From contig CAITGV010000002.1 in NCBI GenBank assembly GCA_903892035.1, positions 1,714 through 65,713 on the forward strand: 64,000 bases of DNA. Reading direction: 5' to 3'. The notes under the pieces were generated by a model. The model saw nothing but the letters and a program-made list of their open reading frames with translations, was not told the DNA's origin and ran no database searches. A program made the translations under genes and the position numbers. Positions 1,095 to 51,288 of this stretch are shown piece after piece (positions within the stretch are counted from its first letter, which is position 1; every line of letters starts with the position of its first letter). This stretch comes from an uncultured bacterium. GTDB lineage: Bacteria; Patescibacteriota; Minisyncoccia; Phycocordibacterales; UBA9973.

Positions 1095-2051
1095 CTAGCT
1101 CACGCTTGCCATACCTGCTGATATTTCCGATATTTCTTGGGTGATTGATGACTGGCGGGCTTTGTTGAATACCAGTGTCAGGTCGTCGATCATCTCCCCT
1201 GCGGCCTCGGATGCATTCTTCATGGCGACCATGCGCGAGGAATGTTCGGAAGCGGTGGACTCGAGAAGCATTTGATAAAACTGCATTCGAGCTAGCTTCT
1301 CTACCAACACACTCATCAATATCTCATAATTTGGCTCAAAAGTATACTGCACCGACTTGGTAGTCGGAGTACCAATTGGTACTCCGACTACCAAGTCTTC
1401 AACCTTCATTTTATTTTTTTCTTCCCCTATCGTTTGTATAAATGAAGCTACTTCTGCACCACTTACTGGAAGAATTGGTCGTACTGTTGCGACTTGAGAA
1501 AGTGCAGAAACGAAATCGGTATATGCTATTGAAACACTACTATAATTTCCCTTTTTGAAAAGTTCCATTGCGTGATTTACGATTGGTAGAGCTTCTGTAA
1601 ATCCTGCAGTATCGCTGATATCGTTGAAAGATGCGACAATGTTTTGTCCAAGACGACGAAGAGCAACTTCACCTTTCTTGCCGACGGAAATGAAATCAAT
1701 TCCACTTTCCCCTAGGCCTTGCCTGTGGGAATTTTCTTTGATTATTGCAAAGACTTTTTTAATGACTTGGGAATTGTAAGCGCCACAAAGTCCACGGTTT
1801 GAAGTGACGAGAATTATCAAAGATTTTTCTGCATTATTATTTACTTTCAAAAGTGGATGATTACTTTCTTGTGCTTGTTGTGATAAAGAAGAAAGAACTT
1901 CCCATGAATATCTTGCGTACTCCCTTGAAGCAAGCGTCCTCGAAATAGCGCGCTTCATCTTCGAAGCTGCCACCAGCTCCATCGCCTTGGTGATCTTCTT
2001 CGTGCTCTTCACGCTCTTTATTCGTCTTTTTATTTCTTTCGTGGATGCCAT
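1095..2051 (-). CDS. atpG: F0F1 ATP synthase gamma subunit
   Basis: N-terminus MASTKEIKRRIKSVKSTKKITKAMELVAASKMKRA and C-terminus ARQSSITQEISEI match the gamma subunit. Position between atpA and atpD. TAG stop at 1095-1097. Confidence 0.95.
   Translation of the reverse strand: MASTKEIKRRIKSVKSTKKITKAMELVAASKMKRAISRTLASREYARYSWEVLSSLSQQAQESNHPLLKVNNNAEKSLIILVTSNRGLCGAYNSQVIKKVFAIIKENSHRQGLGESGIDFISVGKKGEVALRRLGQNIVASFNDISDTAGFTEALPIVNHAMELFKKGNYSSVSIAYTDFVSALSQVATVRPILPVSGAEVASFIQTIGEEKNKMKVEDLVVGVPIGTPTTKSVQYTFEPNYEILMSVLVEKLARMQFYQMLLESTASEHSSRMVAMKNASEAAGEMIDDLTLVFNKARQSSITQEISEISAGMASVS
1355..1396. repeat. Perfect 42-bp palindrome ACTTGGTAGTCGGAGTACCAATTGGTACTCCGACTACCAAGT (head-to-head dimer of the REP unit), in frame inside atpG
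   Basis: Read directly. Each half equals the 23-bp hairpin unit found at 19343, 19555 and 19831. Encodes LVVGVPIGTPTTKS within AtpG just before the conserved YTFEP segment. Confidence 0.85.
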
Positions 2052-2058
2052 AAATTAA

Positions 2059-3561
2059 CTAAACAAACATTTTTTTGAAATCAGCTATCGCGGTCTTGAT
2101 TTCTGCTTCCCCGTCGTCTTCCCAAATGCGCTTTTCGCGGACTTGCTTCATAAAGGTCTTGGCGTTGTTTTCGGCATATTCGATGAGGCCTGTTTCAAAT
2201 TCGGAAATCTTTGTGACGGCTATGTCATCCAAATAGCCTTTGACGAGAGCGTAGAGCGCGACGACTTGGTGTTCGACAACGACGGGAGAGTATTGAGGCT
2301 GTTTGAGAAGCTCGACTGCTCGGCGACCACGTTCGATGGTAGCTTTGGTAGCTTCATCGAGGTCCGAACCGAATTGTGAGAAAGCTTCGAGTTCGCGGAA
2401 TTGCGCAAGGTCGAGTTTCAAAGTACCAGCAACTTTTTTCATAGCTTTGATTTGGCAAGTACCACCCACGCGTGATACAGAAAATCCGACGTTGATGGCA
2501 GGACGAATACCTTTGTAGAACAAATCAGTTTCTAGGAAAATTTGTCCGTCAGTAATGGAGATGACGTTTGTCGGAATGTAAGCAGAAATATCTCCAGCTT
2601 GAGTTTCAATAATTGGAAGTGCTGTAATAGAACCACCACCGTAGTCTTTGTTCTTGCGACAAGCACGTTCAAGAAGACGTGAGTGTAAATAGAAAACATC
2701 TCCAGGATATGCTTCACGACCTGGTGGACGACGAAGAAGAAGAGAAATTTCACGGTAAGCGACAGCGTGTTTGGAAAGATCATCGTAAATAATTAGCACG
2801 TCCTCACCTTTGTCCATAAAATATTCAGCAATAGCGACGCCAGTGTAAGGGGCAATATATGCAAGAGCTGAAGGGTCAGAAGCGCCAGCAGAAACGATAG
2901 TGGTGTATTCCATAGCTCCACCTTCGCGTAGACGTGTTTCTATTTTGCGAAGTTTAGAATCTTTTTGACCAATAGCAACGTAAACACACTTCATATTTTG
3001 ACCTTTTTGATTGAGGATTGCGTCGATAGCAATAGCAGTCTTACCAGTCTGACGGTCGCCGATTATGAGCTCGCGTTGTCCGCGACCGATTGGTACAAGA
3101 GCGTCGATTGCTTTGATACCAGTCTGCACTGGTTGGTCAACACCTTGGCGAGTAATAACACCAGATGCAACACGCTCAACAGGATACATTGCAGATGACT
3201 TGATAGCACCAGCACCGTCGATTGGTAGAGCAAGAGCATTTACGACACGACCGATGAGGGCTTCACCCACGCCGACTTCAAGAATTTTTCCTGTAGCTTT
3301 GACTTCATCACCTTCTTTAATATTGTTGTATTCACCAAGCACGATAATGCCAACAAAATCTTCTTCAAGGTTGAGCGCAACGCCCGTGACACCGTTTGGA
3401 AAAGTCACCATTTCTGATGATTTGATATCAGACAGACCTGAGACACGAACGATGCCGTCGAAGACTTCGGTCACGACACCGACTTTTTGTACAGAAGAAG
3501 TCTTTTTAAAATTTGCAATTTCTTTTTTTAAATTTTCTATAACTAAGTTTCTTGTATTCAT
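2059..3561 (-). CDS. atpA: F0F1 ATP synthase alpha subunit
   Basis: Walker [21 protein letters not shown]. 500 aa. Sits within the atp operon. Confidence 0.97.
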
Positions 3562-6053: not shown

Positions 6054-6125
6054 TGAGCGTGGATGGAATCGGACCATCGACCTCTGTCTTATCAGGACAG
6101 CGTTCTACCACTGAACTACACGCTC
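6054..6125 (-). tRNA. tRNA-Ile (anticodon GAU)
   Basis: Minus-strand sequence folds as GAGCGTG-TA-GTTC-AGTGGTA-GAAC-G-CTGTC-CTGATAA-GACAG-AGGTC-GATGG-TCCGATT-CCATC-CACGCTC-A. Good acceptor, D and anticodon arms. T-loop is unusual (C at position 55). Acceptor helix is extended by CCTGTGT/ACACAGG flanks. Confidence 0.6.
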
Positions 6126-10308: not shown

Positions 10309-12000
10309 CTATTTTATGATGTGTTCCCTTATGTATTCCCTGCTTCCGCCAACTTTTTTGCCGGGGTTTAGGATATTTTGTGGGTCGAAAATTTGTTTGG
10401 TTTTTTCGAAAAGTGAGTAAACTTTTTCCCCGTACATTTGTTCTAAGAATGGTGTGCGAATTATGCCGTCATTGTGCTCAGCGTCAATTGAGCCATGATA
10501 TGAAAGTACAAGAGAGTAAACTTGGTCAGCAAGATTTAAAATAAAATCTGGGTCAAACTTATGCTTCAAATCTAGAAGTGGAATAAGATGGAAATTTCCA
10601 TTGGCTGCATGGCCGTGAATATTGTAGATGAGTTTGTTGTCGTCGAGAATTTTTTTAACTTTAGGGAAAAATTCAGGAAGTGATTCGGCTGGCACTATCA
10701 CGTCATCGATAAAAGGAGCAGTTTGTTTTCCTTGAAAATGCTCGCGTAATAGTGCAAATGAATCGTGGCGTATAGTCCAATATTTTTCTGCTTCAGATTT
10801 TGAAAAAACTTTTCGTGCTTTTGCATTTGGATACTTTTTCATTTTCTGGTAAAGCACATCAATACGATTTCGAACTTCCTCTTTACTGTCCCCTGCGCAT
10901 TCAACAAGAAGGACAAGTTTTGGCACTCCAGTGAAAAGCATTGTCATTTCAGGTATAAATGAAAAACCCAATTTTATTGCACCCCAAAGTCCTCTTTTTT
11001 TAATAAAACCATACCAGAATTTTAGAGCTAATTTTATGGTTTTGTCGTCGTAAGCTTCCACTGTCTCAGGTAGTGCAAGAAGTGCATCGTCAACCATTTC
11101 TCCTAAATTGTCGAGTGATTTCAGAAATACTACAACCATCGCACTCTCTTTTTTTACTTGAACAAGTCGTAAATTAATTTTTGTAGCAATTGCAAGTGTT
11201 CCCTGAGAGCCGACTATTAGTTTACTTAAATCAAATATTTCTTTTTCTTCGTCCCAGACATTCCATAAATAATATCCAGCAGAATTTTTTGTAACAATTG
11301 GTTTTGCTTTTTTTATGATTTCGCTATTATCGTTTATCAATTGAAAAATATTTTTATAAATATCTCCTTCGAAATCACCTTGAGCAATTTTTGCGTACAA
11401 TTCTTTTTTATTGAGTGGTCGCACTGCATATTTGTGGCCATCTGAAAAAACTACTTCGAGTTCTTTTATGTAGTCTTCAGTTTTACCATATCGAAGCGTA
11501 AGCTCACCCGCGGAATTGTTACCAACCATTCCACCCAGAGCATTTATAGATTTTGATGCTGTAAAACAAGGCAAAAGTAGATCGTGTTCTAGTGTCGCTT
11601 TTTCGAAATCTCTATAGTAGCAACCTGGCTCGACGGTTGCGACTCCAGATATTGTAACGGGAGCACTTCCAAAAAACATTGGCTTCATGTTGTAAGGATC
11701 AACTGGTGATACGCCAACTATTTGGTGCATGTAACGAGTAAAATCAATAATTATAGAATTATTTAGTGGACCGCCTGCCATACAAGTACCAGCAGAACGC
11801 GCAGTGATAGAAAGGTCAGGATATTTTGTTTTATTTTCATTTGCCCATTTTACAAGGTTTTCAACATCAGTAGAATCTTTTGGAAAAAGAACCAATTTAG
11901 GAATTACGACAAAAAGACTTGCATCGCGAGAATATTTTTTAATCGCCTCATCTCCGTCCTCAATATCCCCTTTCCAAAATTTTTGTATTTCTTCTTTCAT
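10309..12000 (-). CDS. FAD-linked oxidase / FAD-binding dehydrogenase (GlcD/D-lactate dehydrogenase-like)
   Basis: 563 aa with FAD_binding_4-like N-terminal half and C-terminal oxidase domain. Family-level call only. Confidence 0.65.
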   Translation of the reverse strand: MKEEIQKFWKGDIEDGDEAIKKYSRDASLFVVIPKLVLFPKDSTDVENLVKWANENKTKYPDLSITARSAGTCMAGGPLNNSIIIDFTRYMHQIVGVSPVDPYNMKPMFFGSAPVTISGVATVEPGCYYRDFEKATLEHDLLLPCFTASKSINALGGMVGNNSAGELTLRYGKTEDYIKELEVVFSDGHKYAVRPLNKKELYAKIAQGDFEGDIYKNIFQLINDNSEIIKKAKPIVTKNSAGYYLWNVWDEEKEIFDLSKLIVGSQGTLAIATKINLRLVQVKKESAMVVVFLKSLDNLGEMVDDALLALPETVEAYDDKTIKLALKFWYGFIKKRGLWGAIKLGFSFIPEMTMLFTGVPKLVLLVECAGDSKEEVRNRIDVLYQKMKKYPNAKARKVFSKSEAEKYWTIRHDSFALLREHFQGKQTAPFIDDVIVPAESLPEFFPKVKKILDDNKLIYNIHGHAANGNFHLIPLLDLKHKFDPDFILNLADQVYSLVLSYHGSIDAEHNDGIIRTPFLEQMYGEKVYSLFEKTKQIFDPQNILNPGKKVGGSREYIREHIIK

Positions 12001-19291: not shown

Positions 19292-19342
19292 ATAGCGACA
19301 TTATATCAGAAAAATATAAATCAGGAAATTTATAATTCATTC

Positions 19343-19365
19343 ACTTGGTACTCCGACTACCAAGT
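19343..19365. repeat. REP unit ACTTGGTACTCCGACTACCAAGT (8-bp stem, 7-nt loop), 19 bp upstream of the RAYT start
   Basis: Read directly. Same unit as 19555, 19831 and the halves of 1355-1396, here with loop CTCCGAC (inverted relative to the intragenic copies). Confidence 0.85.
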
Positions 19366-19384
19366 GATATACTTAACTTAATCT

Positions 19385-20017
19385 ATGAGAAATCACAAAT
19401 TTACTGAAGGTGAATACTATCATATATATAATCGTGGCACGGAAAAAAGAGATATCATTTTAGATCAGTATGATCTCCATAGATTTATGAAAAGTTTAAT
19501 AGAATTCAATAGAATTGAGCCTATAGGTAGTTTGTATGAATTATCATTCCAAGAACTTGGTAGTCGGAGTACTAAGTTAAAGAAAAACAAACTAGTTTCA
19601 ATTATTGCGTATTGTATAAATACAAATCACTTCCATTTAATTCTTACTCCACTAGTAGAAAAAGGTATCGAAAAGTTTATGCAAAGAATGGCTGGATATA
19701 CTAGATATTTTAATGAAAAAAATAAGCGAACAGGTGTATTATTTCAAGGTAAATTTAAATCTAAGCATGTTGGATACAATAATTATCTAAATCATTTGAG
19801 TGCATATGTGAATATGAATAATTTAGATAAACTTGGTAGTCGGAGTACCAAGTTGAGCAGGTCTAGTTTAGAGGAGTATATTGATGTGAACTTTGGCGGT
19901 GGTATTTGTGATACATCTATCGTACTTGATCAATTTAAGAGTAAAAAGGACTATTTAAAATTTGCAAAAGAGTCTTGGGCGGATACTCTGGAGAGGAAAA
20001 AGTATCTGGAAATTTAG
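19385..20017 (+). CDS. REP-associated tyrosine transposase (RAYT, IS200/IS605-like Y1 HUH transposase) carrying two in-frame REP insertions
   Basis: Conserved YHIYNRGTEKRDI, HUH motif HFHLIL, FQGKFKS and a Tyr in AYVNMN match the RAYT/TnpA_REP family. Two copies of the REP unit lie inside the ORF, each translated as LGSRSTKL. Confidence 0.75.
   Translation: MRNHKFTEGEYYHIYNRGTEKRDIILDQYDLHRFMKSLIEFNRIEPIGSLYELSFQELGSRSTKLKKNKLVSIIAYCINTNHFHLILTPLVEKGIEKFMQRMAGYTRYFNEKNKRTGVLFQGKFKSKHVGYNNYLNHLSAYVNMNNLDKLGSRSTKLSRSSLEEYIDVNFGGGICDTSIVLDQFKSKKDYLKFAKESWADTLERKKYLEI
19555..19577. repeat. REP unit ACTTGGTAGTCGGAGTACTAAGT (one mismatch) inside the RAYT ORF
   Basis: Read directly. In frame; encodes ELGSRSTKL between the N-terminal motif and the HUH motif. 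Confidence 0.8.
19831..19853. repeat. REP unit ACTTGGTAGTCGGAGTACCAAGT inside the RAYT ORF
   Basis: Read directly. In frame; encodes KLGSRSTKL just after the catalytic-Tyr region. Confidence 0.85.
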
Positions 20018-20553
20018 AGATTTTTTATCTCAGAATTAATTGAATCTCTTTCCTTAGCTGAAAGGTCATAGGTAATTGCTTCACATCCTGCATAGCTATA
20101 CGTCAATCCCAATCCTATTAGTGGTCTGCCTCCAATATCAAGACATTGTTGCGGTGAAAACTGTTCAACATACACCCAAGATTTTCCACCGTTTTCAGGA
20201 CAAACATCACCGAAGCAGTAACTAATAAATTTAACCTCCCTGTTGTTGTAGTAGTAGTATCCGCTTGGAAATTTATAAGAAAATTCTTTTGGGTGAGCAT
20301 TTAAAGGGTTCTGTATATAAACACCGGCATATGTTGTCCCTAAAAATGCAACACAAACGAGAACAATAATTGTAATTCTGAGTGCTTTTGGGGTGGCAAA
20401 AATAATACAAGAAATGATATATAAAATAAGAACAGCTATCAACCCCAGTGGCCTGATAATTGGAAGCTCTCCGTGGCTATAAAAGTACAAAGAAAAAAAC
20501 ATAACAATAGTTAATACTATTTTTGATATGTTTGGTGATATTAATTTCTTCAT
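20014..20553 (-). CDS. hypothetical membrane protein with Cys-containing extracytoplasmic domain
   Basis: 179 aa with three predicted hydrophobic helices then YYYYNNREVKFISYCFGDVCPENGG... No family recognised. Confidence 0.4.
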   Translation of the reverse strand: MKKLISPNISKIVLTIVMFFSLYFYSHGELPIIRPLGLIAVLILYIISCIIFATPKALRITIIVLVCVAFLGTTYAGVYIQNPLNAHPKEFSYKFPSGYYYYNNREVKFISYCFGDVCPENGGKSWVYVEQFSPQQCLDIGGRPLIGLGLTYSYAGCEAITYDLSAKERDSINSEIKNL

Positions 20554-51218: not shown

Positions 51219-51245
51219 TTTATGCAATATTTTCTGTGGATAACA

Positions 51246-51288
51246 AATAGCGTGGCGGGGTACTCCCCGCCACGCTATTTGTTTTTTT
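51246..51288 (+). terminator. Strong GC-rich hairpin AAATAGCGTGGCGGGG-tact-CCCCGCCACGCTATTT followed by TTTTTTT on the plus strand only
   Basis: Read directly. 16-bp perfect stem. The U-tract is on the plus strand although both flanking genes are minus-strand. Confidence 0.55.

Follow-up and report, generated by a model that had tools for sequence, protein, structure and literature searches.

Repetitive extragenic palindromes (REPs) and their REP-associated tyrosine transposases (RAYTs) form the systems known as REPtrons, of which E. coli TnpA-REP (structure 4er8) and the RAYTs of Pseudomonas are examples: a Y1/HUH enzyme with a single catalytic tyrosine is encoded by a single-copy gene, copies of a short palindromic repeat flank this gene, and the repeat, whose sequence is specific to the lineage, is also scattered through the genome, frequently in inverted doublets. 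In REPtrons the REPs lie in the flanks of the RAYT gene, and surveys of RAYTs took extragenic flanks only (10.1101/119735). Palindromic repeats inside genes are also on record: in-frame REPs and Rickettsia palindromic elements (RPEs) are known from Opitutus terrae and Rickettsia conorii, among others (PMC3733652). Here we analyze a stretch of 64,000 nt from an uncultured bacterium of the Patescibacteriota (contig CAITGV010000002.1, positions 1,714 to 65,713; hereafter the window), in which a RAYT-like gene has one copy of a short hairpin repeat directly upstream and two further copies inside its own open reading frame (ORF).

This locus resembles REPtrons in its Y1/HUH enzyme, in the palindromic repeat next to the gene and in the lineage-specific sequence of that repeat; the repeat also occurs away from the gene, in part as doublets, and the gene occurs once in the window and keeps its place over substantial divergence between the window and the homologous locus L042. 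It departs from them in several ways: the RAYT ORF itself holds two more REPs, in frame and at conserved positions, the upstream copy makes up the −35 box and spacer of a putative promoter, and, by a rough tally, some half of the dispersed copies fall in frame within genes. Moreover, the copy number is low, the GTAG or CGTC tag is missing, the protein scores well below the NCBIfam RAYT cutoff, and the host belongs to the Patescibacteria. We consider it probable that the locus represents a Patescibacteria REP-RAYT system with REPs that tolerate being placed within coding sequence, even that of their own RAYT gene. The architecture of the locus, its conservation across the family, the constraint on the repeats at the DNA level, their concerted evolution and their dispersal into essential genes are all direct observations. 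In the literature, of which our coverage was incomplete, we found no account of REPs that lie within a RAYT ORF or make up its promoter, nor of a REP-RAYT system in Patescibacteria or the candidate phyla radiation (CPR).

The repeat unit is 23 nt long, ACTTGGTA-GTCGGAG-TACCAAGT (written whole, ACTTGGTAGTCGGAGTACCAAGT). With up to 3 mismatches allowed, it gives 7 strand-matches in the window, which correspond to 5 distinct copies (Table 1). The same search gave 0 matches in 100 dinucleotide-preserving shuffles of the window; a chance origin of these copies is excluded. Stop codons are absent from 5 of the unit's 6 reading frames, where ~4.5 of 6 would be open by chance over 6-7 codons. The ATG of the transposase ORF lies 19 nt past the end of the upstream copy. 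The codons of both internal copies read CTT GGT AGT CGG AGT AC(T/C) AAG, giving LGSRSTK(L), and internal copy 1 differs from the unit by a single mismatch, a C to T change that produces a G.T mismatch in the stem. The coordinates and sequences given for the ORF, the upstream copy and both internal copies in the original prediction, which was made from the letters of this DNA, were all correct on recheck; the two remaining copies, which it had not listed, overlap each other in atpG. Folded as single-stranded DNA (ssDNA), single units reach −4 to −7.8 kcal/mol (−4.0 kcal/mol for internal copy 1; −7.8 kcal/mol, z −6.0, for the upstream copy) and the atpG doublet reaches −22.7 kcal/mol (z −11).

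The protein matches Pfam Y1_Tnp (E 5.5e-8, 33.4 bits, cutoff 23), and its H82, H84 and Y141 are invariant among 28 homologues. Its AlphaFold model (predicted local distance difference test, pLDDT, 82.8) finds its best solved-structure match by Foldseek in 4er8_A, a structure of the E. coli REP-associated tyrosine transposase in complex with a REP hairpin; the TnpA proteins of IS608 and ISDra2 come next. The domain match, the invariant HUH and tyrosine residues and the fold match all bear out the earlier identification of the gene as RAYT-like. Within the Y1 superfamily, the family is a clade of its own that comprises 659 clusters (50% identity) at E ≤1e-30; the few source names attached to the protein matches are of the Patescibacteria group, plus one labelled 'archaeon', and the window itself (36% G+C) has gene content and protein matches of the Patescibacteria/CPR type. 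In the predicted model, internal copy 1 lies in a loop modelled as disordered (pLDDT <50 at residues 60-65) before the HUH strand, and internal copy 2 lies in a linker directly after the catalytic-tyrosine helix, consistent with the earlier view that both copies are in frame and tolerated. The window holds one copy of the transposase gene and no second, and a terminator scan around the gene found none.

To place this arrangement in its family, we compared the window protein with its homologues. Proteins of equal length and 58-70% identity have two segments at the same alignment positions as the two LGSRSTKL segments, and within each protein the two segments agree (GTPTTK/GTPTTK, GSKASK/GSKASK, GGPTSK/GGPTSK, GSSTTK/GSSTTK). 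The LGTPTTK of relatives is the window unit with its loop flipped; the window's two internal loops have the opposite orientation to that of its upstream copy and to those of most close homologues. More broadly, homologues of ~205-230 aa and 40-70% identity have hairpins at both internal positions and in both flanks. Locus L038 uses ACTTGGAAGC-AAG-GCTTCCAAGT at all its positions, and L040 uses ACTTGGAGGTC-C/G-GACCTCCAAGT at its upstream, internal-1, internal-2 and downstream positions; the L042 hairpin is CTTGGTAGTTCAACTACCAAG. In a further sample of 80 metagenome loci (40-67% identity to the window protein), the hairpins differ strongly in sequence (for example CAGCGGTTCAACCGCTG, AGATAGAGGTTAAACCTCTATCT and GTAGGGGTGCTACCCCTAC) and lie at about −37 to −60, +165 to +200, +430 to +450, and just past the stop codon.

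We quantified site occupancy by counting one hairpin family per gene in 82 full-length genes, with 185 displaced windows from the same loci as controls. The upstream site is occupied in 72 of the 82 genes, internal site 1 in 57, internal site 2 in 28 (mostly closer homologues) and the downstream site in 64. Three or more copies occur in 60/82 genes and in 0/185 controls; at least two occur in 75/82 loci and in 10/185 controls. An entire doublet of 46-52 nt can occupy internal site 1 in the more distant members, as fits a site in a loop predicted to be disordered. The window gene is flanked on its upstream side only: no downstream copy was found after its stop codon or before gatB, even with 6 mismatches allowed. 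The fourth copy, present in most relatives, is lost here.

These comparisons bear directly on the earlier suggestion of a recently self-targeted element, in which the REP would have transposed twice into its own RAYT gene in this lineage. Such an event would account for internal copies that match the unit exactly or nearly so and that sit in loops, but hairpins occupy the same two codon positions, as well as the flanks, in similarly long homologues at 40-70% identity, and in each lineage the internal copies match that lineage's own flank copies. The arrangement is thus old and family-wide, and recent self-insertion is extremely unlikely. The original prediction had also raised the case that relatives might carry the same segments with no hairpin-forming DNA elsewhere in their genomes. 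The first part of that case was found, in that relatives carry LGTPTTKL, LGSKASKL, LGGPTSKL or LGSSTTKL; the second was not, since those genomes contain hairpin DNA at other places too.

Copies that belong to one gene, whether inside it or around it, evolve in concert; between lineages, their sequence differs. We measured this in the clade that keeps the outer stem TTGG...CCAA (40 genes, 19-nt copies): the mean number of mismatches per 19 nt is 0.58 among copies within a gene versus 6.6 at the same position between genes, and the 40 genes contain 31 distinct hairpin cores. Pairing within the hairpins is conserved as their sequence changes. In a covariation test on in-frame internal copies, picked by their outer anchors alone, 94% of stem cells are paired, double-sided changes number 60 versus 16 in shuffles, and the covariation score is 0.53 versus 0.18, a value reached by 0/500 shuffles; sliding the pairing partner along the alignment as a control gave scores of ≤0.12. 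The copies in the non-coding flanks covary with those in the coding sequence.

One alternative is that LG(S/T)xxTK is a functional peptide present twice in the protein and that the palindromy of its DNA is incidental. The L-G...K frame is indeed kept at both sites across the TTGG...CCAA clade. Yet the peptide otherwise varies freely (GTPTTK, GSRSTK, GSKASK, GGPTSK, GSSTTK) and is wholly different in distant clades, the stem stays paired through compensatory changes, and segment 1 is predicted to be disordered. Among five genes at 87-92% protein identity, codon identity at identical residues is 97% in the hairpins versus 72% elsewhere, so that the synonymous sites of the hairpin codons are nearly frozen. 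Identical DNA is present in the non-coding flanks and, read in other frames, in other genes, where it yields LVVGVPS, LVLRLPS or WYSDYQ. A conserved protein motif is therefore very improbable: near-frozen synonymous sites together with stem covariation mean that selection acts on the DNA palindrome and not on the peptide. We also considered the encoded peptide as the setter of hairpin specificity and rejected it: a loop flip turns LGTPTTK into LGSRSTK, and the genome retains the same unit.

The upstream copy may be promoter DNA. Its left arm would supply the putative −35 box, TTGGTA, and the remainder of the REP lies within the 17-nt spacer (Table 1). The −10 box, TATACT, is separated from the ATG by 11 nt, so that the mRNA would be near-leaderless. 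Read by eye, at least 19 homologous loci share the layout TTGGnn-17-(TG)n-TATAAT/TATACT, followed 6-12 nt later by the ATG.

This layout is relevant to a reading of the repeats as RNA-level elements acting in mRNA stability, as a 3' end-protecting stem-loop, or in translational pausing or attenuation. E. coli REPs stabilise mRNA. Such mRNA-stabilising REPs are also discussed in PMC3733652, and the downstream copy in this family, where present, resembles them in beginning a median of 5 nt past the stop codon; the internal copies, moreover, are transcribed. Set against this, the upstream copy overlaps the −35 box and spacer and so would escape transcription, the copies occur in either orientation relative to their host genes, and no Rfam family matches any of the hairpins. 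Wobble mismatches are as common on the antisense as on the sense strand (18 G.T versus 15 A.C), which gives no specific pointer to RNA structure. An RNA element would also leave unexplained why the hairpin type tracks the Y1 gene. We therefore regard this reading as unlikely.

Table 1. Positions of the transposase gene, the repeat copies and associated features in the window.
Feature	Position	Strand	Details
RAYT-like Y1/HUH tyrosine transposase gene	19385..20017	+	210 aa; HUH H82-F83-H84; catalytic Tyr Y141
Putative RAYT promoter	19345..19373	+	−35 TTGGTA, 17-nt spacer, TG, −10 TATACT; 9/12 matches
Upstream REP copy	19343-19365	+	ACTTGGTACTCCGACTACCAAGT; exact reverse complement of unit, loop CTCCGAC
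Upstream REP, extended palindrome	19341..19367	+	TCACTTGGTA...TACCAAGTGA; stem 10 bp, loop 7 nt
Internal REP copy 1	19555-19577	+	ACTTGGTAGTCGGAGTACTAAGT; in frame, L58-L65 = LGSRSTKL
Internal REP copy 2	19830..19854	+	exact unit 19831-19853; in frame, L150-L157 = LGSRSTKL
atpG, F1 ATP synthase gamma subunit	1095..2051	-	318 aa; host gene of doublet
REPIN-like doublet	1354..1397		units 1355-1377 and 1374-1396 head to head, overlap AATT; 44-nt perfect palindrome

Beyond the transposase gene, the unit is a dispersed hairpin repeat, as had been proposed, with copies in atpG and in other genomes. The atpG doublet is in frame, in a reading frame that differs from that of the RAYT copies and gives DLVVGVPIGTPTTKS, and it falls in an AtpG segment that has no counterpart in solved gamma subunits. 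The closest AtpG relative, L124 (90% aa and 82% nt identity), lacks the doublet and is 14 aa shorter (304 versus 318), with ~8 aa of the gap in the doublet loop; exactly at the site of the window's doublet, L124 has a different, single hairpin, CACAGGTCGGACCTGTG (10635-10651). Two other genomes have the doublet at the same atpG site. The presence of different hairpins at one atpG site means that hairpin-bearing sites are reused while the hairpin itself turns over. AtpG has a second extra segment in the window, of 18 nt (GLGESG; ~1700-1720, minus strand, codons ~110-116), which is absent from L124; 'RQGLGE'-like stretches occur in the AtpG homologues P0200 and P0181, and a second AtpG variant, P0154, has the peptide PTGVGIPTAVGKS.

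The exact 21-nt core of the unit was found in 37 stretches of species-representative genomes, all but two of them metagenome-assembled genomes (MAGs) of Patescibacteria, and several genomes have it at multiple loci. Many copies fall within long ORFs, which by Pfam encode PheT, LigA, PepN, IF-2, LeuRS, an RsmI-like methylase, AtpC and AtpG; those in pheT, ligA, infB, leuS, pepN and atpC of related genomes are in frame. These copies are read in several frames, often as the doublet NLVVGVPSGTPTTK, and by a rough tally about half of 70 dispersed copies are intragenic. For the lineage-specific hairpins of other family members, we counted 25 in 523 kb of flanks, 15 of them in ORF segments of at least 120 aa. 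The core also occurs on two long contigs of a Prevotella sp. MAG, JAXFLJ01 (L006 329-351 and L022 7902-7924), inside a longer palindrome, GTACCGATGCTTGGTA...TACCAAGCATTGGTAC; no RAYT homologue was found near these copies within the 8 kb examined per locus.

RPEs, which are said to go back to Ogata et al. in 2000, offer a parallel to this dispersal. RPE-1 is longer (100-150 bp) than the repeat described here (19-23 nt), and whereas RPEs and CGTC repeats have no known dedicated transposase, this repeat is tied to a Y1 gene that carries the repeat itself. The parallels with intragenic REPs and RPEs (Di Nocera et al. 2013, PMC3733652) are otherwise close: palindromic repeats lie in frame in functional, often essential, protein genes, they are present as single units or dimers that add ~8-30 aa, sometimes at the same site in related species, and they may be missing from a close orthologue, as the atpG doublet is from its 90% identical relative. 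Given these earlier reports, the statement that REPs are normally intergenic, made in the original prediction, stands with the qualifier that intragenic in-frame REPs were already described.

A further possibility is that the gene and its flanks form an autonomous IS200-like insertion sequence, with the flank hairpins as left and right ends and the gene as the mobile unit. The Y1 fold of the enzyme, which is that of the IS200/IS605 TnpA proteins (IS608, ISDra2), and the hairpins just outside both gene ends in most loci agree with this idea, as do the location of the gene at another locus in the closest relative genome and the presence of two paralogues in some genomes. These paralogues, however, are 44-63% identical rather than near-identical; L034 carries two of them on a single contig, separated by 2 kb (1-543 and 2574-3026), with identities of 63% and 44% to the window protein. 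IS200/IS605 elements are multi-copy mobile units, whereas the 64-kb window has a single copy of the gene. Their left and right ends are distinct and lie on one strand, whereas here the same hairpin is used at all positions with varying loop orientation, and here the hairpins are also dispersed alone, including inside genes. Moreover, the order rpe-rpiB-gap / RAYT / x / gatB is common to the window and L042, where the RAYT is 71% identical and its neighbours 56-75% identical; such similar divergence of gene and neighbours is as expected for vertical descent. An autonomous insertion sequence is accordingly improbable. In L042 (10676-11405), a VanY-family gene lies between the RAYT stop codon and a REP copy adjoining gatB; at the syntenic place in the window (20014-20553), there is an unrelated 179-aa ORF that overlaps the RAYT stop, and no downstream REP.

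The hairpins might instead be double-stranded palindromic sites for some other factor, such as an operator bound by a repressor or by a nucleoid protein, a signal for DNA uptake, or a site related to restriction. Perfect palindromy around a 1-nt centre, a typical feature of dimer-bound sites, is seen in many variants, the promoter overlap resembles that of an operator, and Patescibacteria are generally thought to take up DNA. What speaks for the adjacent transposase as the partner is that a lineage-specific hairpin sequence is tightly linked to this gene (the excess of loci with at least two copies over displaced controls given above), while the loci have no other conserved neighbouring gene in common; the density of the hairpins, ~1 per 20 kb, is also far below that of uptake signals. 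We judge a site for another factor to be quite improbable.

Several observations weigh against a REP-RAYT system, or at least against a simple version of it. That the enzyme recognizes the hairpins is suggested by their linkage to the gene, by covariation and by analogy with TnpA-REP. The protein missed the curated NCBIfam RAYT equivalog NF047646 (22.8 bits, cutoff 80), and a search of Protein Data Bank sequences with the family profile gave no match; fold comparison alone tied the transposase to 4er8 and IS608. The repeat is sparse: the 64 kb contain 5 copies at 3 places (1 doublet and 3 singles), related loci have ~1 hairpin per 21 kb, and classical REPs number in hundreds. No rule governs loop orientation at the four positions, where flips are frequent, and this fits poorly with strand-specific excision of the IS608 type, and no conserved 5' GTAG-type or CGTC tag common to the lineages was found. 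As for the promoter, its −10 hexamers lie in AT-rich DNA, and a promoter scan of this region gave 7 matches versus 5.4 expected, by itself not above chance. The closest relative by AtpG has its RAYT homologue (71% identical) elsewhere, in the order recR / RAYT / rplU, so that vertical inheritance at a single locus is not the whole story. Finally, the L124 atpG hairpin does not match the REP that goes with that genome's own RAYT (L038), which means either that homogenisation is not universal or that this genome has a second system.

If the locus is nevertheless a REP-RAYT system, a mechanism can be proposed. The transposase would bind or cleave the hairpins as ssDNA, as E. coli TnpA-REP does, and would prefer targets in cis and sites where a hairpin is already present. 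Repeated overwriting or flipping would then homogenise the hairpin copies, and inside the gene only insertions in the two tolerant loops would survive. Such a preference would account for the fixed sites as well as for the homogenisation. Binding at the promoter copy, perhaps with the internal copies as auxiliary sites, may in addition provide autoregulation. IS200/IS605 TnpA proteins recognize subterminal hairpins on ssDNA, and by analogy the same chemistry may be attributed to the enzyme here. In IS200, a hairpin near the 5' end controls expression. The lac O2 operator inside lacZ and the gal OI operator inside galE are intragenic auxiliary operators, and the present locus would resemble them in having a promoter palindrome plus further copies in the coding sequence; this likeness is one of analogy, confined to the arrangement of the sites, and the sites here differ from those operators in being mobile and dispersed as well.

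In some loci the right arm of the flank hairpin is tandemly repeated 1-5 times after the hairpin, for example GAACCTCCAAGTTCGA GAACCTCCAAGTTCGA. Such repeats lie downstream of the RAYT gene in L049, L045, L054, L057, L059, L067, L073 and L089, and upstream of it in L122. Repeated rounds of cleavage and joining could have left them, as could slippage during replication.

A stronger form of the proposal is that the internal copies, far from being passengers that the gene tolerates, are working components of a self-contained replicator, and that enzyme-driven replacement homogenises all copies in the genome. We put this forward tentatively, as a possibility that is at present doubtful. Were it true, the RAYT ORF would carry the master copies of its own substrate, so that recombination could not part enzyme and repeat; the transposase would continuously rewrite short peptide insertions across the proteome of these ultra-small bacteria, essential proteins (AtpG, IF-2, LigA, tRNA synthetases) included; and the four-site array around the RAYT gene would throttle its own expression.

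For the REP-RAYT reading as such, the implications are broader. It would extend REP-RAYT biology to the Patescibacteria, and the dozens of lineage-specific hairpins paired with enzyme variants would amount to a natural experiment on the rules by which Y1 enzymes recognize hairpins. The repeat family gives clear sequence-level evidence of evolution in concert across coding and non-coding sites, and it offers one source for the short, odd insertions found in essential proteins of reduced genomes. It also calls for caution in annotation: recurring peptides such as LGTPTTK or NLVVGVPSGTPTTK are repeat-encoded and are not protein motifs.

Two other features of the window were noted. A tRNA gene (6054-6125, minus strand) is its sole Rfam match at the gathering threshold. 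The strongest other palindrome, which is unrelated to the REP unit, is a perfect hairpin at 51242-51283, AACAAATAGCGTGGCGGGGTACTCCCCGCCACGCTATTTGTT, with a 19-bp stem, a 4-nt loop and 55% G+C.

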